Source: Daphnia carinata (taxonomy: Eukaryota). From it: a DNA stretch of 64,000 nt. Below, piece by piece: positions 10,593-30,024 of this stretch. The stretch spans positions 11,346,001-11,410,000 of the forward strand of contig NC_081331.1 in NCBI RefSeq assembly GCF_022539665.2, read 5' to 3'. Each line of letters begins with the position of its first letter. The first letter of the stretch is position 1. The position numbers were made by a program, and so were the translations under genes. The notes under the pieces are model-generated. The model worked only from the letters and a program-made list of their open reading frames with translations, ran no database searches and was not told the DNA's origin.

Positions 10593-12924
10593 TCACAATT
10601 CTTCATGCGTAAACATTTGTTTTGCAATTTGGGCACAGCGACTCCGATCAGCGATATCCGTTGTCACGATGAAACAGAGTAATCCTACACGACAGTCGTC
10701 GTCGCAACCTTGAGACATTTTTGTATCTGCACCTCTGTAATAGTTCCTGCATCGTAAGTCGAACAGAAATCGAGTTATTCCTTTGTGTAATTTTATGAAA
10801 ATTAGTAAGAAACAATGTTATACTTGAAATACTTCTGGAAAAGAACGTCATCAACCAATATCCGCTGGAAAAATTCATTCATGCTATCTGGGCTTAGGTC
10901 AACGAGGTCGTATTCTTTTTTGGCGTGGTAGAGCTCGAACCAAACAGGATCCTCACTTGGGCCCAACAAATTGGCTGCTGTCAAGTTGATGGCCCAAGTG
11001 GTAAAGTCGAGCACGGCCTGTCTCAAACGACGATAGCAAATTATGCACGTCTAATAATGCAGGTGACATGGAAAATGCCTAACCCAAGTCGAGCCAGGGC
11101 GTCTACCATCGATGGTGTACACTCGATACCCAGGATTGAGGTCCGTAAACGTTGTAAGACTTGGCCCCATAAAAGCCACGTTAGTTGGTCGACTTGTGTT
11201 AACAAGATCGTAAAATATTTTGAATTCATCTTTATGAGTGTGTCCGTAAAACTGAGCGGCTACTGTTGATTCAAATCGATTAATAGTCTTTGAAAATTCT
11301 CGACTAAATGTTGACCAACAGTCATTGTTTCCGGGTGGTATATGACTCACGATATGAACCTACGAACAAGAAGTGAAGTGTAATTTGTGTGATCTTAAAA
11401 CTATATTAGAGCGGTGTGCAATAACATCACCTTTTCACCGGCCTTTTCTGCATTTTGAAGGACCTTGTTTAACCAAACGAGACTGGCGGCAGGATCCTGA
11501 AATTTGGATAATGTCCACAAGTTTCCCGTGTAGCAATAATTTGTGTTTAACGATACAACACGAAGTCCCGGGTAAATAAGGGTAGTGTAGTAACCTCCAT
11601 AACGGATGGTTGATGACCCTTCATCCGGAAGCCATTGAGCCCACTGTCGAGCTGCAACGTCGTACAACCAAGCAGTGTTGATGGCTTCGTCCGTTATATC
11701 AGGTGGCGCAAAACTGGAATTCAAATCGAATTTCGTCATAAAGATCAAACCGACTGAAGCACTAAAATTCGCCAAAAATTGTGATACGTATCGGTGGGAT
11801 GAGATTCGTGATTTCCAAGAGTGGCGTATAACGGCGTTGATGGAAAATAGCGCTGGATCAAGTTCATTAGACGCTCCATAATGTAAATGTTGTCTTCTTT
11901 GCTAGTTGACCAAACGTTGTGTGGAACTAAGTCACCCGTCCATATGATATAAGCAGAATCCTTCAAAGAAAAAATAACGATTACTATATTTCCCGCAAAG
12001 TTACACGCCCTTATCCATCGTGACGTATACCGCATGCTTTTCTGCCATATGAGCTATGGCTTTTTCTATGAAATACCAAGGTAAATCGCATGTTCGGTAA
12101 TCTCCCCAATAGCCAGCAGCGTCTGTAGCTTTGTCGACGTCTCCTGAATCAGCTCGACAACACAGAAAATCTTCACATGCCGCGTTCGATCCAGCATGAT
12201 ATTCTGGGTCCCAATGGAGATCAGCTACATGGAGCACTTTCATTGTAGGAGATCCTAACTGAATACCAGAATAATATAATAAGTTAACAATTTTGTTTGC
12301 AATGTAGTTTTGATATGCATGGGGAAGTATGGTCATACCGATGGTGGGACAAACTGAGTTACAAGTGGTTTATCTACAGAACTAGATGCAATCTTCCAGT
12401 TTATGTTGTTGGGATCTGACAGAGAACAATTGTCAGCTTGTAGGTAAATCCCACATATATTGCCCTGAATCACCAGTGAATTGGTATACATGTACCTTAT
12501 GGTTGGCTATTCATAAAGCATTCATTAGTCAGTTTAAGTGTTTTTATGGATCATTGTCTAACATGAAATGGATGTAAAAAATCACCATTATGATTGAGGC
12601 AGTTCCATTGCAAACTTTGAAATTAAAAATGTTGAGAGCTTCACACCTCTGTCCAATAAGAAAAGAAATCTCTCTGTCACTCATGCCATTCTTCAGCCAA
12701 TCAGTAACTTCTTCCACTAGCTGATTGCAAAGAGCACACTTGCTTTCAGATGGCCATTGCGCTGCTGGTACGTCTGCGGAAGTAAATTTCCAAAACGCAA
12801 TGTGTCACTTTTAAGAAACGTGAACTTACTTTAGTAATTGTATACTTGAGAGAGCGGAAAAATCCAATAAACATATAAGATAAAGAAAAATAAAGAGTAA
12901 CTGGATCTTGCTTACAAACGACAT
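10593..12924 (-). CDS. Acid sphingomyelinase (SMPD1-like) paralog 2; multi-exon
   Basis: Hydrophobic first exon from ATG 12924, CALC saposin region, motifs HVADLHWD, WTGDLVPH, GNHESHP and FYGHTH. The last exon ends ...MFTHEEL*. Confidence 0.88.
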
Positions 12925-13229
12925 TCTATATCTTGTCTCAAAATGGGAGGAATCACTCAGAAGCGAAAAGATCCTTCAGACTGCCTCGTAGCGTTAGCAC
13001 CAGTGCGACAGTTATCCAACTTGTTTACAAAAAGTTGCAAACGTTGGAGAAGGCTAACTATTCCGCCCTCTATCGATAGAACTGTACAGTGGGAATACAT
13101 TCCCCGAAAGGAAGTTTGAAACGAATAAATGCGACTACCTAGCGATGCAGAATTGTAGTTGTATTAGTACTGAGGCGTGTCAGCCAGTTAAAAAACGGTG
13201 CAACAGAACGAAAAACGGTAGTTCGTCAT

Positions 13230-15526
13230 TTAAAAGTCGGGATGCTGGCTTAAAATTTGACGGATATTTTGGCAACGGCTTTGATCCAACGGATCAGTTG
13301 TGATGATAAAGCATAGAAGCTTGGTGCGGCAGTCAATGTCACAGCCCTTTTCCAATCTTTCTTCTGACTTTTTGTAATAGTGCCTTAAATAACAAAGCAC
13401 AAATGAAGAAAGGTTTACAAATATACTATATCCTTATAGTCACATCCACTTACTCAAAGTACATCTGGAAGACAGTGTCGTCAGTCACGAGTTGTTGATA
13501 GAATGCATCCATCGATCTCGGACTCAAATCGGCCACGGCATAATCACGTTTCGCTTGGTATAATTCAAACCAGACGGGGTCGATAGAAGGATCTTGGTTA
13601 GCAACTGTCAAATTCATGATCCAAGAACTGTGATCCAGCACAGCCTGTATTAGCAAAAGAAATTGGGATAAAATCATTAGCAACCTACATTGGTACCACA
13701 ACTAACCCAAGTGGATCCAGTCCTTTGCCCATCGACTGTGTAAATTCGGTAACCAGGATTGTCAGAAGAGGTTGTCAAACTTGGGGCGACGAAAGCAACA
13801 TTTATTGGCCGATTCACCTCTTCAAGATCGTAGAAGATCTTGTACTCATCTTTGTGAGTGTGACCGTAAAACTGGGCGGCTACCGTCGATTCGAATCTGT
13901 TGATGATCTTGGCGAATTCTCGGCTAAAGATGGTCCAGCAATCAAGATTTCCTGGAGGAATGTGGCTGAGGATATGGACCTAATTTGAAAACATTTTTAT
14001 TTGCTTTATGCTTTAGCGTCTGCGATCTATTTTACCTTTTCTCCAGCTAATTCAGCGTCCTCAAGAACTTGACTAAGCCAAGTAAGGATTGATGCGGGAT
14101 CTTGAGACTTGTAATACGTCCAGTAGTTGAAAATGTAGCAGTAATTCATATTCATGGAGACGATGCGAAGTCCTGGCTGAACCAAGGCCGTGTAATATCC
14201 ACCATAACGGACACTTGATGAGGCGTCAGCTGGAAGCCATCGAGCCCATTGTCGGTCTGCTTCATCGTAAAGCCAAGCAGTATTGAACTCCACGTCAGTA
14301 ATTTCTGGTGGAGCAAAACTACAAATAAGGATGAACGAATACGTTGAAGCACAAATTTTGTATATAATTCATTTACGTGTTAACCGGATGAGACTCGTGG
14401 TTGCCTAAAGTTGGATAGACAGGTACGTTAGGGAAGTATTGCTGGATCAGGGTCATCAAACGATCAATAATCATCAGATTTTCATCTTTGTCGGTGGACC
14501 ACGTATCATGAGGCGTCAAATCTCCCGTCCAAATAATGTAAGCTGTATCCTGCAAAATTATGTCATTGTGCTCATTTGTGTGTGTGAATACAATTGAGTA
14601 TAATGGGGTAACATACCGGGTGCTGTTGAGCCATGTGTGACACTGCATTTTCTACCGTCCTCCAGGGTAAATCACAACCTCGACGATCACCCCAATATCC
14701 TGCTGCATCTGTAGCGTTAACAACTTCTCCGGAAGATGCTCGACAACATAGCGGGTCGCCACATGCGGCATTGGATCCTTCGAGGTACTCCGGATCCCAG
14801 TGAATGTCGGACAAATGCAGAACTTTCAGAATAGGGGAGCCGGCCTTCACAAACATACAATCGTGTTAATTTCCTTATTAATTGCTTATCGGATTAAAAT
14901 GTTAGTAGTGGGGTAATTTTAAATACCGGAGGCAAAGCTGGTTCTGTAACAGGCGGTTTCGGAACCGAGCTGGGTGCAACTGACCACTCTAGTACTCCTG
15001 GATCAGAAAAACCGCAGTTTTCGGTCTGCAACAACATGCCGCAAATGTTTCCTTGAATTACTCCCAATGAATAGATGTATCTGATAGTTGGCTAAATAGG
15101 ACACGAAAAAATTTTAAAAATAAAAACATTGGGTTCATAAGAGTGGTGTGGTAAAGTTTAAAAGGAAAACCATGGCAATAGCAGCGGTCCCGTTGCAAAC
15201 TTTGAAATTGTACAAGTTAAGGGTTTCGCATCTCTGGCCGATTCCTGCAGAAATCTCGTCATCAGTCTGTCCACTCTCAAATCCCAAGAATATATCGGAG
15301 ATAATGGAATTGCAAAGGGCACAGTTAATTAGTCCTTTTCCTGCTGTGGATTCGACATGCCAATATTCTACAGGCACACCTGATAACGAACAAGGAACCA
15401 ATGGTTGTTGAAATAAACAAAAATTGTTAAATATACGTTAGAATTTCTACACACAAATGTTAAAGTAAACCGATTACCTAGAAATCCTGGCAAACAAATT
15501 ACAAGACTAAAGAGAAGGGAACGCAT
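13230..15526 (-). CDS. Acid sphingomyelinase (SMPD1-like) paralog 3; multi-exon
   Basis: Signal peptide MRSLLFSLVICLPGFLG, CALC saposin region, motifs HLSDIHWD, WTGDLTPH, GNHESHP and FYGHTH. The last exon ends ...LSQHPDF*. Confidence 0.9.
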
Positions 15527-16683: not shown

Positions 16684-19600
16684 ATGGAACTTTTTAGGAC
16701 TGCAGATTACTATATCTTCCGGCAAGGGGAACACAGTCTCTGGTGCAGCAGGAAAACTGGAATTTTAGAGCCCAGAACAGGTAACCATTTCATATTTCAT
16801 TTTTTAATCATTTTATATTTACAGATTTATATTTTACAACTTTTTCTGAAATATGTTGTAGCCTGGGATTTGACAAAAGCTGAAGATCCTCATTGTATGG
16901 GTCTTATCCATGGTATTGTCGGAAAACTGAATCCATTTCCTGGTAAAAAAAGAAATAATAATAATAGTAATGAGATAGTTGTAATAAAGAATTAAATTAG
17001 TCATAAATTTTTGTACTTTATTTTTAGCATTCTTAGGTAGTAATACATATTCTTCTATTGTCTATTTCAGACACAGACCCTCAGCTGCTAATTATAGAAA
17101 GCTGCAGTCTTGTTGGCTATGTTTGGAAAAATCAGCCCATATTCAAAATCAACAAAATTGGCCTCCTTTCTCTGGGTCAACAAGAAGCCGAAATTACAAC
17201 ACATCCATGTTCGAAACATAGCAATTCCGTTGCTTTCAATCAGAGGCCGGACGATAGTGGAAGTAAACCTTCGTCTAGTTCCAGACAACAGGAAGCATTT
17301 GCAAAGACCTGGGGTTCAATAAAATCTGCAACCAAATCGCTCAAGAGTACAACTGTGCAGGCAGCCCATAAAATTGGAATCGATGGAAGGGAAGGGGATC
17401 GTGGTGCAAGAAGAATTTGGGATGAAATAGAGAAGATGTTCACACATGCAGATTCCTTTTACTTTTCTCGACAGTCGACCTAACCAATTCTGTCCCAGTT
17501 TTGGGTGAGCGCTACAATTCTCCCACGGTTTGTTGGCGATCAGCAAACAGTCGTTTCTTTTGGAATGAGTTCCTACTCAAAGAACTAATCGAACTTGAGG
17601 TAAAATGCAATTTTTCAATTACAACTCTTTGTAGAGTTTTAATTACTTCCGAAAAAGACTGTAAATAGAATTTAACTACCATTGATTGATTTAATGATGT
17701 TACGTATAAAAATTTTTCGTTACCTCGTGTAGGATCCAAAAGCTGACCCCTGGATCGTCCCTGTCCTTCATGGCTACATTCATGTAGATACCGTTCCTGT
17801 CGTGCTTGATGGCGCAACGAATTTCAATAAGCCTCTAATTTTGCTGCTCATTTCACGCCGCTCGCGCTACCGAGCTGGTACCCGATACAAACGTCGTGGG
17901 GTAGATGAAAATGGTTATGTTGCCAACTATGTAGAAACAGAGCAGTGTCTCATATTCGGAGATCATATTTTGTCCTTTGTTCAAGTACGGGGATCTGTTC
18001 CAGTATTTTGGTCCCAGCCGGGGTTCAAATATCGTCCACCTCCCCAGATCGATAGAGGTATAAATTATTCTTTCTTCTGTCAGCTGTTAATGACCTATGA
18101 CATTATCGCTTACGATGTTCCGTTCTTCTTTGTAGATGTGGAAGACACTCGGCTTGCTTTTAAGCGTCATTTCGAGCGAGAATTACTTCTCTATGGAAAT
18201 CAGTGCATAGTCAATCTAGTCGAGCAAAGTGGAAAAGAGAAGATAATAGGGGATGCTTTCACGGAGCAAATAATTCATGCGAATGAGGCAAGAATCACCT
18301 ACGTAACTTTCGACTTCCATGAGCATTGGTGGGATATACTTTTCTCCATGATCTTCTAACTTTTAATTGGAAATTTATATATATTTTCTTTAGCCGCGGG
18401 ATGCGATTTGAAAATGTTGGACGTCTATTAAATGGGTTGGAAGACGTACTTCAGGAGATGAAATATACGTGGATTGATTCGCATGGTGTCATTTGTCGAC
18501 AACAATCGACTTTCCGGATAAATTGTATGGACTGCTTGGATCGAACTAACGTTTGCCAGGTATGTGCATGTCTAAGTTTTTTGTATTTTAAATTATTAGA
18601 TTTAACTCTTCTTTCGCAGACTGCATTTGGAAAGGTCGTCTTGGAATGCCAATTAAGCAAATTAGGTATTCTTCCACCCGAAGGCACATTCTGGCCAGCG
18701 CTCAAAACAGCCTTCAACACCATGTGGGCAAATAATGGAGATGTCCTCAGTCGACAATACGCCGGAACGAATGCTCTCAAGGTTTCAATGAAAATAATAA
18801 AATCATCCAAAGATCGGAAGTCCTAATTTTTCACCTAATTGTAGGGCGATTTTACACGCACCGGAGAAAGAAGGTTCGCCGGAATGATGAAAGACGGAAT
18901 GAATTCGGCTAATCGGTAAAATTTTGGACAATTTAACTTGCTATAAAGATTTGCAACTCATCCAAATATCTTTGAATTAGTTATTATCTCAATCGCTTCA
19001 AGGATACGCTAAAACAGACAGCTATTGATCTTGTGCTTGGAAACATCCAGCCAGAAGATGCTATGAACATTCTTTGTGGTCAGAATAACGCCATGGAAGA
19101 TGATGAAGAAATCGTTTTGCAGACGGCTGACAGAGTTCGTCAGGTCATCGAGGATTGTCGTAAGCAGTTTATTAGCCCTGATGAAATAATAGTAGGGTCT
19201 TGGGGATTGGTTGATGCGCATCCCGTAACCGGTGACCCAACACAAGTTGACATGGATGCTATTGTCATTTTGTCACGAGAACATCTTTACGTGGTTTCGT
19301 AAGTGTTTAAAGTTATATTACTTGTTTGAATTATCGCAATTTAATCCTTTGGTTATTTGTAGTTACGATGATGACGCCGATCATGTCAGAGCGTGTAAAA
19401 TATATGCGCTTGCTGAACTGATGAAGCTTGAAGTAGGATCTGAAGGGAAAACGAACTTATTATCGAATGCTAGTGTGAATTTTCTTAAGTCACCTAAGCG
19501 TGAGGCAGCCGCACCACCAACCTTCTTCATGCGTATACACATACGAAATTCATCGGACGAAGCAGAAATTTTGCAATTTCGTTCGACGAGACTAAGATTT

Positions 19601-20901
19601 TTCAATAACATGGCTGTTCCGATTTGCAAAACCGAGGATATGAACGGTATAACAAAATCTTTTTGCATTTGTAGCCCACTTCTTGTACTATTGCTCCTCA
19701 TACAGAATCGTTAAAGGCGATTGCTGAAACCATTCACGTTACGATGGATATTACCGGATTAACGATTCCTTACACAGTTGGCACTTTGGAAAAGCTGTCA
19801 TTGAAAAACAATATGAAAATCGGATACATGGAAGTGCCACGTTGGCATGGTTTCCCACGAAACGCATCGGAAGGGCAGTTATCTGCTCTAAAGCAAGCTG
19901 GTAATTTGTATGAAAATTAGAATTCGTTATTGTCTAATACTAATTTTACCAATTTGTTAAATGCAGGCAATAAAGCATTATCCAGCGTTACTTCACATTT
20001 CTCGCGTCTGAAACCGCCTGTTATACCACGCAATTTAGGCCGTTCAGCGAGCAAGAAGAAAGAAGTCTCCGACCAAATAACAGACCCATCAGCGATTGGG
20101 ACCCTCGAAGCAGAAATGAGAATACGTTCTAGCTCTTCTAGTTTAAACGATCTCACATCGTTTTCGTTAATCAAAGACGTCTTGCACCTACCGTCAGTTG
20201 GTGTCCTTTTCCTGACTAGCAATGAAATTCGGGTGGAGCTTGCCGATCCTGTGCCTGAAGACACGAACACGCACGAAAAACCTTCTCTACCAAAAGTCTT
20301 GCTCCGTTGTGTCAGTGCCGGTCAATTTGACAGTCGCTGTCTGCTAAAAGGAAGGCGAAATGGAGAAAGTAGCCAGCTGAATAGATTAGGTGAAAATGTT
20401 CGCTTGACAGTGACACCAGAAATTCAGATCATTGCAACAGATGGAAAAGAAGGCGGCGAACATAGCAACACCATATCTGTTCAGCGTTCGAGACACTTCT
20501 CGCACTCCTCCGATCGCCTTGAATTGGGCGTAGCAGTGGAAGATTCCACTTTACTTAGAGCCTCATCTGAGACTAGCTTAGGCAATAGTGCAGCTCCTAC
20601 GGAAATGAAAAGTTCCCATTCAAACTATGAAGGCTTGCTTCCAATCGGGACCACCGTTTTAACATCGTTTAAAATTCCGACGTCACAGGGGAAGTTCAAT
20701 GTTGGTATGCTAACATCGCCTACAAGCGTTAAGGGAAATCCGTTAGTAATGCTGGCTAAAGGTGTACAGAATCTAGGCGCTAATTTGGATCCTAGAAAAA
20801 TGCTTGACTCTAGGAAAGATACGTTGATCTGCAAAGAGAATGTATTAGAAGATATAACGAAGCAGAAGTTCTGCACAAATACTAGAATTATTCATCTTTA
20901 A
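16684..20901 (+). CDS. INPP5F: Phosphatidylinositide phosphatase SAC2 (INPP5F); multi-exon, apparent 1-nt frameshift near 17468
   Basis: The N-terminus MELFRTADYYIFRQGEHSLWCSR resembles INPP5F. SAC domain motifs SRRSRYRAGTRYKRRGVD, RGSVPVFWSQ and the catalytic RINCMDCLDRTN are present, followed by an hSac2-type C-terminal region. Confidence 0.9.
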
Positions 20902-21592
20902 ACACTTGAACCACATTTCCTCTAGCTGAAAGACGACGTCAAAAATGCTAACGTACTCTTCACTCAACATTCCATTAGCTCCGCCTTCCATTTAGTAAAT
21001 GTTGTAATTTTCCATGCTGCCTCACTACGCAGTTAATAACTTGTCCTGTGAAGACATTTGTGAATCCCATTATGTTGCTCTTACGATAGGAGCTACATGC
21101 TTTACTCAGGCCCTTGTTGTCGAGGATATCAGTATTACTGCGAGATCGCAATTCACGATGTCTAGTCAATCCTATGTTCGCTTTGAGTCAAAATCAAATT
21201 TCATACAGGGCACTCTAGGAGAGGTTAATACTCAACTTTAATTTAGGCTATGCTTTACGAACACATGAACGTTTGTATTGTTAGTGCTGGTTGAATCATC
21301 CTTTTTCTTCAGCGTTTTAAATACACATTATTAGCGCGCGTACTGTATCCTTAAAGCAATGTCAAGTCTTTACAATAGGCAATTTATATGGCACCTGACT
21401 TTATTTGGCACTACCATTTTTTGAACACATTTTGGCTTAAAAGATTTCGAGCTTAAGTTTTACAAAGTACAAATACCTAGATTTATTGCTAAAAAAATAA
21501 CAAACGAAGACATAACGGAAACTAATATACCTGACCAGCGATGCCTCTGAAGATGGTGCCAAGACAACAGTTGCAAGGGAAGACCGTTGCCA

Positions 21593-21630
21593 GACTGTGA
21601 ATTGCAGTGTTGGCTACCGCCTTATATACC
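21593..21630 (-). promoter_or_regulatory. Putative Pol II core promoter (TATA + Inr) with no annotated gene
   Basis: On the minus strand GTATATAAG (21629-21621) is followed ~30 nt later by TCACAGTC, then a candidate donor CAG|GTATAT near 21530. Confidence 0.35.
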
Positions 21631-22478
21631 CGTCGACACGTTCCACTTCCTGGCTTTCCCGGAATAAAAGTCTAGGGTAGGGGTTTAATTCTGAAGGCCG
21701 ATTGCCGTAAGATAAACTTTAATTTCCACATGGACTCCGGGAGATGACCGTTCCCTCTCGATGAACTCAAACTTTTGCACCTAAAATAGATGAATAACCT
21801 TGGGCAATTCAAAATGAAGAATCCAAACACCATTTTGTCCTTTCAGTTCAGTAGCTCACTCACCTGCACGATAAGCACTAGCGTAGTTTTATCGCTTTGA
21901 TTACCGGTGTAGTGATTCACACTTTCTCACGTGGATAGATTTTTGCGTTCACCAGTTCGATACCTTTTGTAATTTGTGGACACACCAATCACGCACTAAA
22001 AAGCACTGCATCAGCACTTGGTTTTGCCTCTGCACTAGTTTAGTTTAGTTGCATATGCCAAATTGTATTTCACTGGGTCATATTGCTAAGTCATTGCTTT
22101 TGCACAACACTACACTGGCCATTTCACTTCACTATGTCATGCATTATTTACCGGTGGTTTTCGTTCACAAACCGTATCTCTATAATGAATATGTTTTGAC
22201 CATATCACACAATTTCCAAATGCCCCGTCAATCCTAACGAACTTCCGACTACTAATCCTAACGAAGCATTGTTAATAATAATTTTTTTTCAGGAATATTG
22301 TTATGGAATGTGATTACTATTTCTGTCTTTGATGCATGTTAGATTTAAGCTGCAACTTGTCGTTATCTAATTATTCAAAGGCAATTTTTTTTTCTTTTTT
22401 GTTTTCGTTTCTGTGCGATTAGGAGGGCAATCTGCGGGGGCCGAAGAGGACACGGGACATCGAGGATCGGCGCGCAAA

Positions 22479-24377
22479 AAGGTATCAGTGATAAATTAAA
22501 GTGTACTAATTGTGTTTTTTTGTATTTTATGTATCTAGATTGGCCGGCCAAAGGACCGAAAAGGCCCAACGAGGATCGTCGTGGGAGCTACAAGATCGCC
22601 GTGGGATCGTCGAGATCGTCGTCAGTAAGGTATCAGTGATAAATTAAAGTGTACTAATTGTGTTTTTTTGTATTTTATGTATCTAGATTGGCCGGCCAAA
22701 GGACCGAAAAGGCCCAACGAGGATCGTCGTGGGAGCTACAAGATCGCCGTGGGATCGTCGAGATCGTCGCCAATAAGGTATCAGTGATAAATTAAAGTGT
22801 ACTAATTGTGTTTTTTTGTATTTTATGTATCTAGATTGGCCGGCCAAAGGACCGAAAAGGCCCAACGAGGATCGTCGTGGGAGCTACAAGATCGCCGTGG
22901 GATCGTCGAGATCGTCGCCAGTAAGGTATCAGTGATAAATTAAAGTGTACTAATTGTGTTTTTTTGTATTTTATGTATCTAGGTTGGCCGGCCAAAGGAC
23001 TGAAAAGGCCCAACGAGGATCGTCGTGGGAGCTACAAGATCGCCGTGGGATCGTCGAGATCGTCGCCAGTAAGGTATCAGTGATAAATTAAAGTGTACTA
23101 ATTGTGTTTTTTTGTATTTTATGTATCTAGGTTGGCCGGCCAAAGGACCGAAAAGGCCCAACGAGGATCGTCGTGGGAGCTACAAGATCGCCGTGGGATC
23201 GTCGAGATCGTCGCCAGTAAGGTATCAGTGATAAATTAAAGTGTACTAATTGTGTTTTTTTGTATTTTATGTATCTAGATTGGCCGGCCAACGGACCGAA
23301 AAGGCCCAACAAGGATCGTCGTGGGAGCTACAAGATCGCCGTGGGATCGTCGAGATCGTCGCCAGTAAGGTATCAGTGATAAATTAAAGTGTACTAATTG
23401 TGTTTTTTTGTATTTTATGTATCTAGATTGGCCGGCCAAAGGACCGAAAAGGCCCAACGAGGATCGTCGTGGGAGCTACAAGATCGCCGTGGGATCGTCG
23501 AGATCGTCGCCAGTAAGGTATCAGTGATAAATTAAAGTGTACTAATTGTGTTTTTTTGTATTTTATGTATCTAGATTGGCCGGCCAAAGGACCGAAAAGG
23601 CCCAACGAGGATCGTCGTGGGAGCTACAAGATCGCCGTGGGATCGTCGAGATCGTCGCCAGTAAGGTATCAGTGATAAATTAAAGTGTACTAATTGTGTT
23701 TTTTTGTATTTTATGTATCTAGATTGGCCGGCCAAAGGACCGAAAAGGCCCAACGAGGATCGTCGTGGGAGCTACAAGATCGCCGTGGGATCGTCGAGAT
23801 CGTCGCCAATAAGGTATCAGTGATAAATTAAAGTGTACTAATTGTGTTTTTTTGTATTTTATGTATCTAGATTGGCCGGCCAAAGGACCGAAAAGGCCCA
23901 ACGAGGATCGTCGTGGGAGCTACAAGATCGCCGTGGGATCGTCGAGATCGTCGCCAGTAAGGTATCAGTGATAAATTAAAGTGTACTAATTGTGTTTTTT
24001 TGTATTTTATGTCTCTAGGTTGGCCGGCCAAAGGACCGAAAAGGCCCAACGAGGATCGTCGTGGGAGCTACAAGATCGCCGTGGGATCGTCGAGATCGTC
24101 GCCAGTAAGGTATCAGTGATAAATTAAAGTGTACTAATTGTGTTTTTTTGTATTTTATGTATCTAGATTGGCCGGCCAAAGGACCGAAAAGGCCCAACGA
24201 GTATCGTCGTGGGAGCTACAAGATCGCCGTGGGATCGTCGAGATCGTCGCCAGTAAGGTATCAGTGATAAATTAAAGTGTACTAATTGTGTTTTTTTGTA
24301 TTTTATGTATCTAGGTTGGCCGGCCAAAGGACCGAAAAAGCCCAACGAGGATCGTCGTGGGAGCTACAAGATCGCCG
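22479..24377. repeat. 148-bp tandem array, ~13 near-identical copies
   Basis: GTATCAGTGATAAATT recurs every 148 nt from 22482 to 24258 (13 times), and copies differ by only a few substitutions. Each unit has an AT-rich half and a GC/CpG-rich half with four GATCGYCG subrepeats. Confidence 0.98.
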
Positions 24378-25186
24378 CCTCGAGAACCCGAGATTCACGC
24401 CCATTTGGATTAAGAAGAAACGAAGATGGTACGGTTTAGTATGGCCGAATCGGCATTTTTCTTACTTCATGCTATGCTGTGATGTGAGTGTTTTATAAAT
24501 GTTTTCTCCGATTCCTTTTTCCTTACCTTGGTGTTCCCTTTAAGCACTATGGCTAATGGTCATTGCACCCCGCCTTCACTTTGTACTCAGCAGCACACTG
24601 CAGCACGCAACTTCACAACACATTTAGCTCATGGTTTGTTGGCTGTTTGTGTTAGCTTTCATACACCAGGTAGGGAGGGCTATTTTTAGGTAATATAACT
24701 CCGCACTTTACATCGGTATCTCACTTAAACATTTGTTGGTGTAGATCTACTAATACTAACTGCTTTGAGGACAAACAGGAAAACGAAAATAACTTATTCG
24801 CTTTGTCAAGCGTTTAAAAAAAAAGAATGTTGGACTAGCGTTATGAATCAGTCTTGCGTTTAGTCTTTTATTTTTGAAAGATAATGCACAAGGAAAAAAA
24901 ATTGGGCAACCCTTTTAAACAATCCATTGCTTGCTGTCGGTTTGCGCATCCCGATTCGAGAAACCGATTGAAATCCGACAGGGCATGGGGCCAATAAAAG
25001 GCAGTTCTTAACCCATCCAACCCACCCCGAAAACCGACAGTACCAACACGGTTGATGCTGGGCCGAACCGGCGATCCTGATAGGATCTAGGGCTGGCCGG
25101 TAAGGAACTAGGATCATTTTAGTTGAACGCTATTAAACAACGGTGACGTGAAATGAACATAAAACATAAAAAATTTATTCGAGATC

Positions 25187-25200
25187 TCGCCATCTAGCGG
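25187..25200 (-). promoter_or_regulatory. CTCF-like binding motif upstream of SMC3
   Basis: The minus strand reads CCGCTAGATGGCGA, which matches the arthropod CTCF core. A similar CCGTTAGATGGCGA lies at 51234-51247. Confidence 0.4.
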
Positions 25201-25376
25201 TAAGTAATAGAGGTAGCTTCTGCTGGTTTGCACCAATGCGTCAGTAACACGGTGCGCGGGCTACTCTCATTGTGATTGTTGACAGTTTCTCTGTGGAGTG
25301 ATTTTGGCGGTTTTTGCAAGACAGCCGCCACCACAAAGTTTTCGTTTGAAACCCATGTTTTCTTTTAATTAAGTGA

Positions 25377-30024
<4,648 letters not shown>

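Follow-up and report, generated by a model that had tools for sequence, protein, structure and literature searches.

A 148-bp intron-plus-exon tandem array between SAC2 and SMC3 in Daphnia carinata, probably the internal repeat of a non-autonomous mobile element

The window (the whole 64-kb stretch of Daphnia carinata DNA analysed here) contains a 1.9-kb tandem array that sits between two housekeeping genes read on the same strand (Table 1). The left neighbour is SAC2/INPP5F. The right neighbour belongs to the SMC family and is presumably SMC3; it is followed by COG7 and then by TOPBP1. The spliced TOPBP1 product was identical to XP_057373063.1 at 1369 of 1369 residues and about 95% identical to that of D. 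magna. One likely assembly indel was noted in the window, within SAC2. The 5' flank of the array is rich in CACT, and its density of this motif, noticed post hoc, is the highest on either strand. Near the start of this flank, at 21843, lies a TCAGTT that we take to be initiator-like.

Table 1. Features of the SAC2-SMC3 interval and its two neighbouring genes (positions within the window)
Feature	Position	Strand	Basis
Left neighbour, SAC2/INPP5F coding span	16684..20901	+	Pfam Syja_N; intron model
Putative inserted element, probably ~3.2-3.5 kb, both ends approximate	21700..25200	+	SAC2 and SMC3 141 bp apart in D. magna; 2.8 kb or more of additional DNA here
CACT-rich 5' flank	21841..22260	+	12 CACT in 420 nt vs 2.9 per kb in the window
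Acceptor before exon A, kept in one D. magna copy	22407..22422	+	P0035 residues 10-26 align to 22407-22457; acceptor 4.1 bits
Exon A, 59 nt, diverged relative of the unit exon	22423..22481	+	Local alignment; EGNL start common to P0033
Array, 13 introns of 57 nt alternating with 12 full exons of 91 nt	22482..24314	+	TRF, unit alignment
Terminal exon, 114 nt: first 62 nt unit sequence, remainder unique tail	24315..24428	+	Homologous to P0033, P0036, P0037
3' flank homologous to one D. magna copy	24429..24671	+	P0036 aligns to 24352-24459 and 24537-24671, combined E 5.9e-26
AATAAA, the sole one between array and SMC3; possible poly(A) signal	24993..24998	+	Motif only
Imperfect hairpin near the inferred right end	25044..25125	.	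z = -3.4, 0/200 shuffles; stretch preselected for its hairpin
Right neighbour, presumed SMC3 coding span, 1207 aa	25407..30024	+	Pfam SMC_N; 14-intron model; D. magna model 1208 including stop

The array was detected by TRF at 22479-24377 as 12.8 copies of a 148-bp period with 98% matches. Of the 19 TRF rows of the window, no other exceeds three copies. Its 13 donor blocks recur on the plus strand at 22482+148n, up to 24258, with a spacing of exactly 148 bp. The earlier note had described the unit as an intron followed by a 91-nt exon, with alternating AT-rich and CpG-rich halves, and both descriptions proved accurate. Twelve of the 13 intron-like blocks are identical; the intron half has 23% GC and no CpG, and the exon half 59% GC and 11 CpG. 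Internally, the 91-nt exon consists of about 2.5 copies of a 20-nt subrepeat (TRF). The homogeneity of the array is 99.3% (13 differences in 1,895 bases compared), and no unit carries an indel. Nine distinct variants were found, one in the intron and eight in the exon (binomial p = 0.08). Two of them recur in units that are not adjacent, one in units 4, 5, 11 and 13 and the other in units 2 and 9, a pattern that would be compatible with unequal exchange or conversion. Classical satellites form long heterochromatic arrays, which was not observed at this short array between housekeeping genes; it is better called minisatellite-scale.

Exon A, immediately upstream of the array, was compared with the repeat exon by local alignment. 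The score against the whole unit exon was reached by 167 of 5000 shuffles, and that against its last 59 nt, a comparison made post hoc, by 6 of 5000. The earlier note had reported synonymous differences between exon A and the unit. Third-position changes do distinguish four of the eight aligned codons, with no change at other positions. Frame and alignment were chosen post hoc, however, and the frame is not kept across copies.

The splice signals of the unit were scored with donor and acceptor matrices built from 29 host introns of the window (11 from SAC2, 14 from SMC3 and four from TOPBP1). The SAC2 and SMC3 introns were chosen by eye and checked by open frame, and the TOPBP1 introns were obtained via protein alignment. 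The 57-nt block is the best intron within the unit, at 14.8 bits, and it exceeds 24 of the 29 host introns scored leave-one-out. On the minus strand the best intron of the unit scored 2.5 bits; splice signals are found on the plus strand only. Among 2000 dinucleotide shuffles 44 attained 14.8 bits, as did 109 of 2000 half-wise shuffles and 21 of the 355 antisense tiles. When the CTAAY branch motif was also demanded (a general consensus that just 4 of these host introns contain), the score was attained by 2 of 2000 whole-unit shuffles, 5 of 2000 half-wise shuffles and 2 of 355 antisense tiles. Host introns range from 57 to 147 nt with a median of 64 (n = 29); the array intron thus equals the shortest of them, and the earlier view of 57 nt as the typical size here has to be abandoned. 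The unique tail of the terminal exon is present as had been described, but the putative donor that follows it at 24429 scored only 5.3 bits, and D. magna ORFs read straight through it. As in spliced lncRNAs, canonical splice signals lie on one strand with no accompanying ORF. Real intron anatomy on one strand is supported for the unit, at the level of sequence. RNA folding gave z scores of +1.3 for the intron, -0.3 for the exon and +1.1 for the unit relative to shuffles. A reading as a mirtron or structured RNA was ruled out, since folding was no better than in shuffles. The Rfam search gave one match of 19 nt, below the gathering score.

Relatives of the array were found in D. magna. A phmmer search with one frame of the terminal exon against 1.84e9 proteins gave two matches. 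One was real, the D. magna protein OUZ56_031766 (P0033; E 9.7e-9), and the other, P0034, was dropped as a low-complexity false match. A profile of P0033 and six window frames selected 3 of 3,611 candidates and added P0035 (OUZ56_030553) and P0036, a nine-member cluster of eight Logan ORFs and APZ42_017370. Searched back against the window by tblastn, P0035 (E 1.5e-27) and P0036 (E 5.9e-26) covered a span of 22407-24671. The D. magna homologues have in common the exon A acceptor, donor, branch region, unit exon, terminal exon and 3' flank to 24671, and the flanks common across copies are 22407-22481 and 24378-24671. Where P0035 reads through the intron, 11 of 13 residues match the donor/branch region, against about 65% in exon stretches. 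In the earlier note, the lack of a homologous intron-bearing parent locus had been named beforehand, together with a lack of spliced junction reads, as an outcome against its reading; homologous intron-bearing loci were found in D. magna, so that the first of these outcomes did not occur. Four loci are known in two species, one in D. carinata and three in D. magna, and all of the latter come from predicted proteins; copy number could thus be as low as that of an ordinary small gene family. Scans for DNA patterns of the array returned no stretches from metagenome contigs, viral contigs or prokaryote genome contigs, and a search of metagenomes for the SAC2 tail gave 236 pattern matches, of which none was confirmed.

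The D. magna copies differ in their units. Three identical 34-residue units occur in P0035, in-frame units of 28 and 31 codons occur in another model, and the units of P0033 resemble one another more than they resemble the D. carinata unit. The D. magna loci are known from predicted peptides only, and the state of their acceptors was deduced from the codon possibilities of these peptides. An AG at the homologous acceptor is impossible in either intron of P0036. At the first repeat junction of P0033 it is impossible at the homologous acceptor and possible 4 nt upstream, and at the third junction it is possible.

The positions of these copies were taken from the LRV0_1 gene table (PMC10570034, Table S2), which was equated with the OUZ56 records by inference from chromosome and protein lengths. 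P0035 corresponds to Dmagna004270 (scaffold_10:1.96 Mb) and P0033 to Dmagna005483 (scaffold_10:6.32 Mb), 4.35 Mb apart; the match rests on lengths +1 (216 and 207) and an ID gap of 1213 in both systems. SAC2, SMC3, COG7 and TOPBP1 lie on scaffold_1 (PMC10570034). APZ42_017370 lies on a scaffold of 2.295 Mb, and the TOPBP1 record KZS08586.1 on one of 2.11 Mb. All three D. magna homologous loci are thus off the scaffold of the array-flanking genes. The modeller tools used in D. magna were trained on developmental RNA-seq (PMC10570034). In the published table, Dmagna004270 carries none of the four modeller flags, and Dmagna005483 carries those of geneid, CLASS and Scripture and not that of StringTie (PMC10570034). 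These flags, two of them from RNA assemblers and none of them giving junctions, suggest that Dmagna005483 is transcribed. This gene starts 847 bp from a divergent housekeeping gene, and read-through from a promoter common to the two could account for its RNA. Neither Dmagna004270 nor Dmagna005483 has orthologues or Pfam families in that table (PMC10570034). Dmagna005484, a gene of 433 aa adjacent to one of the copies, has paralogues and no Pfam family.

Several observations bear on coding capacity. Exon A and the 12 repeat exons lack ATG, and the first ATG of the spliced product is its last three bases. Read in its three frames, the spliced product meets its first stop at codons 80, 110 and 49, respectively, within three units as the earlier note had stated. 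No frame stays open once at least two repeat exons are included, and a direct splice from exon A to the terminal exon leaves two of three frames open. Splicing of the repeat units would thus yield no protein. The 20-nt subrepeat encodes an identical 20-aa peptide whichever frame is used, which accounts for the recurring DRR peptides without invoking coding. Different D. magna ORFs read the initial 36 nt of the exon, and between them they use every frame. Because the copies read one DNA in different frames and one copy has lost acceptors, there is no sign of a conserved protein. Pfam assigned no family to two array-overlapping ORFs (among eight window proteins examined); among the proteins selected by the searches, P0033 and P0035 had weak sub-cutoff matches only, and P0034 and P0036 had none. 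The 96-aa read-through ORF found no candidate among proteins of 52-168 aa, and none of 10 short window ORFs was recovered by exact look-up. The ESM Atlas was uninformative (best feature score 0.77, TM at most 0.42; pTM 0.17 for the P0033 model). The stretch of about 3 kb around the array is likely to be non-coding.

The corresponding interval was compared with D. magna scaffold_1, where sphingomyelinases, SAC2, SMC3, COG7 and TOPBP1 are listed in the same order as in the window (PMC10570034). By these published coordinates, the SAC2 and SMC3 models are 141 bp apart. The starts of SAC2 and SMC3 are separated by 5,543 bp in D. magna and by 8,723 bp, ATG to ATG, in D. carinata; the control distance from SMC3 to TOPBP1 is 8,216 versus 8,115 bp. 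From the SAC2 stop to the SMC3 ATG the interval is at most 1,699 bp in D. magna versus 4,505 bp in D. carinata. Twelve extra units account for only 1,776 bp of the excess. Calculated from gene coordinates and assuming equal intron lengths, the DNA unique to D. carinata at this site amounts to at least 2.8 kb, and probably to 3.2-3.5 kb. Because SAC2 and SMC3 lie so close together in D. magna, the syntenic site there is without these 2.8 kb or more, and a one-unit remnant is unlikely. On the published gene coordinates the matching site is apparently empty, with a deletion in D. magna as an alternative. The syntenic conservation that would mark an lncRNA gene was not found across this 141-bp gap.

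The array was examined for the ends of known classes of element. Terminal inverted repeats (TIRs) and target site duplications (TSDs) were searched within 21450-21900 and 24900-25380, a search that old decayed ends would escape. The best TIR matched at 11 of 14 positions, as against 11-13 in 10 shuffles, and four TIR+TSD candidates were found, as against 2-8 in shuffles. TIR DNA transposons (MITE, foldback, CACTA or hAT) were set aside, since TIR and TSD scores stayed at shuffle level within these brackets. A non-autonomous LTR element (TRIM or LARD) was likewise rejected, the best direct alignment of the flanks being matched by 52 of 200 shuffles. A single HINE-like geometry (22120-22132 and 25143-25155, with a palindrome at 25180-25189) was equalled in 11 of 60 shuffles. 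Canonical Helitrons begin with 5' TC, end with a 3' hairpin followed by CTRR and insert in AT. A hairpin at 25073-25087 has CTAG nearby, followed by G and not T. No transposase was seen. As in non-autonomous Helentrons, copies without coding capacity are dispersed over the four loci of two species with no conserved frame, and central tandem repeats lie between conserved flanks (here, in P0033 and in P0035). No end geometry rose above chance, and the stretch is filed as a candidate non-autonomous DNA element, not as a Helentron.

Similar arrangements have been described in other animals. As a rule, the oyster Cg_HINE elements carry a central array of 140-180-bp monomers, with as many as 29 copies (PMC7492417). 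As in DINE-1/HINE (PMC4067079) and Cg_HINE (PMC7492417), dispersed non-coding elements with conserved flanks surround short arrays of such monomers, and the arrays hold from a few to about 30 copies at euchromatic locations. In contrast to HINE and Cg_HINE, no subTIR pair, 3' palindrome geometry or TT site was found above chance here. The monomer here is an intron plus an exon and the flanks extend over hundreds of bases, unlike in the passages that describe those elements. Internal tandem repeats that grow into satellite-like arrays are also known from Tetris, a foldback/TIR transposon of Drosophila virilis (PMC4079207), and the seeding of satellites by such transposons has been reviewed (PMC9659126); unlike in Tetris, terminal inverted repeats were not found here. 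The major ampullate silk genes of Argiope contain tandem exon-plus-intron cassettes homogenised within the locus (PMC9779670). Those are in-frame protein genes, whereas the exon here is 91 nt long, lacks ATG and does not keep its frame between loci. CACTA and Helitron families are present in D. pulex (PMC2884549), and 171-bp repeats are abundant there (PMC3152781). Given the 140-180-bp and 171-bp repeats known elsewhere (PMC7492417, PMC3152781), a unit of near-nucleosome length is common for such repeats. The literature searched (titles and the starts of abstracts) held no description of the Daphnia family, which Repbase or Dfam, outside the scope of the search, may catalogue. The Drosophila hsr-omega gene is a syntenic single-copy gene for a spliced lncRNA that contains repeats. 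The Daphnia family resembles it in being non-coding and in having a locus-specific homogenised tandem array, but it occurs at scattered loci, and the intron forms part of its repeat unit.

Taken as a whole, the array is best read as the internal tandem run of a non-autonomous mobile element that entered the SAC2-SMC3 interval in D. carinata, a reading to which we give a probability of about 0.6. A mobile element is likely because D. magna relatives with small arrays of their own sit elsewhere while the matching site looks empty. Movement as DNA is inferred, since introns are kept and neither a poly(A) tail nor an LTR pair is present. Most plausibly, a Helitron/Helentron-like or other non-autonomous DNA element would once have captured a small transcription unit with introns. 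Given the similarity of exon A to the end of the unit exon, misalignment between related exon ends could have duplicated an intron plus an exon. Slippage or unequal exchange may then have extended and homogenised the cassette locally at each insertion, as shared variants and locus-specific units suggest. Separate amplification at each insertion would have produced the 148-bp unit here and other units elsewhere. Some copies would be transcribed and, where sites are intact as here, probably spliced as a by-product.

Selection probably plays no part in keeping the splice sites. The apparently well-kept donor and branch region, the variants that avoid the intron and the RNA-assembler flags lean towards maintained splicing and against the by-product view. 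A mobile, intron-rich ncRNA unit, present in both species, that re-amplifies its cassette wherever it inserts, and whose transcripts are spliced by signals under selection, nevertheless seems improbable. If it existed, the splice signals could serve RNA export or silencing of the element, and a mobile family of repeat-exon lncRNAs would offer a natural series for how exon-intron arrays arise and homogenise.

Strong splice signals on one strand, with an exon A acceptor, donor and branch point that D. carinata and D. magna have in common, would also suit a small dispersed family of functional spliced ncRNA genes, spread by ordinary DNA duplication, with splice signals under selection and with each copy enlarging its own cassette. 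The flagging of Dmagna005483 by CLASS, Scripture and geneid (PMC10570034), the initiator-like motif and AATAAA that bracket the array, and the failure to find transposable-element ends point in the same direction. Such genes are unlikely all the same: their loci are non-syntenic between the two species, acceptors are lost in the P0036 copy, Dmagna004270 is unflagged, and the RNA of Dmagna005483, which StringTie did not report, could be read-through. Moreover, exon RNA structure does not exceed that of shuffles, and Rfam gave no match of substance. The array could instead descend from a fast-evolving, Daphnia-specific family of basic repeat proteins rich in Arg, Gly and Ser, with repeat exons in frame elsewhere and the D. 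carinata copy being a frameshifted pseudogene whose cassette still amplifies. The D. magna models with in-frame units of 28, 31 and 34 codons, the third-position differences of exon A and the open frames of its direct splice to the terminal exon would fit this account, which is quite doubtful, however. Gene finders select for in-frame units, the models translate the same bases in different frames and run on through introns, and the subrepeat explains the DRR peptides without coding. The two D. magna models, as noted, have neither orthologues nor Pfam families, and the Atlas model of P0033 is poor by its pTM.

Among other possibilities, the earlier note had suggested a satellite newly born at this site from part of a single-copy parent gene. 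Unit identity of 99.3% does imply an expansion that is recent and local, but this origin has become very improbable unless the D. magna loci derive from this one, as the family occupies at least three other loci in D. magna, where homologues already carry tandem units, and the apparently empty syntenic site has no room for the block. Still harder to credit is a one- or two-unit element inflated in copy number by long-read assembly. At least one likely assembly indel does occur in the window (in SAC2), but the array contains nine distinct variants, two of them common to distant units, and no unit indels, and a D. magna model also has three identical units.

Mobile elements with short tandem arrays, the class to which the preferred reading assigns this locus, are well known. 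Two features of the Daphnia family are unusual: its monomer combines an entire short intron with an exon, and the version that has been amplified differs between insertions. If spliced, the family would provide a tractable crustacean test of how the splicing machinery recognises, skips or back-splices near-identical neighbouring introns, and it would show how a transposon can give rise to multi-exon repeat genes. The mobile-element reading also explains several D. magna 'hypothetical proteins' as repeat-derived models.

The left flank of the element, the inferred insert between SAC2 and SMC3 that carries the 148-bp intron-exon array, may be transcribed outward. Within 21450-22480, 15 donor-acceptor pairs scoring at least 10 bits were found on the minus strand versus 6 on the plus strand, and the top minus-strand pair (21863-21781) reached 15.7 bits. 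The minus-strand features lying within 21477-21630 could possibly represent a short antisense transcript facing the 3' end of SAC2; alternatively, they may belong to the left end of the element.

Features around the putative element and in D. magna
Feature	Position	Strand	Remarks
Acid sphingomyelinase-like genes in tandem	11700-15450	-	
TATATAAG	~21628	-	within 21477-21630
Initiator-like site	~30 nt downstream of TATATAAG	-	
Intron-like stretch, 54 nt	21530-21477	-	12.9 bits
CGCCATCTAGCGG	25187-25199		upstream of SMC3
Tandem repeat, 88 bp	46212-46384		two copies, 89% match
Dmagna005484	D. magna scaffold_10:6317999-6319339		433 aa, near-intronless orphan, paralogues present

On the other side, CGCCATCTAGCGG is probably part of the host promoter; we take this putative site to be similar to an arthropod CTCF site. 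In D. magna, one member of the element's family lies ~1 kb away from Dmagna005484, a candidate transposon ORF. The 88-bp repeat is possibly another small duplication containing an intron, as both copies begin close to a GTGTGA and contain CAG downstream of a CTAAY that resembles a branch point.

The published gene table lists three acid sphingomyelinase-like genes at the syntenic D. magna site. A 1-nt frameshift was observed in a conserved stretch of SAC2 (~17466-17470, plus strand). The SAC2 frame is open to ~1115 aa only if one extra base is added (read as X), the D. magna model being 1117 including the stop, and the frameshift is probably an assembly error. A second, shorter TOPBP1 paralogue is found in Ctenodaphnia species (proteins P0003-P0006 and D. 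magna scaffold_2), with ~56-62% identity over the TOPBP1 exon compared.
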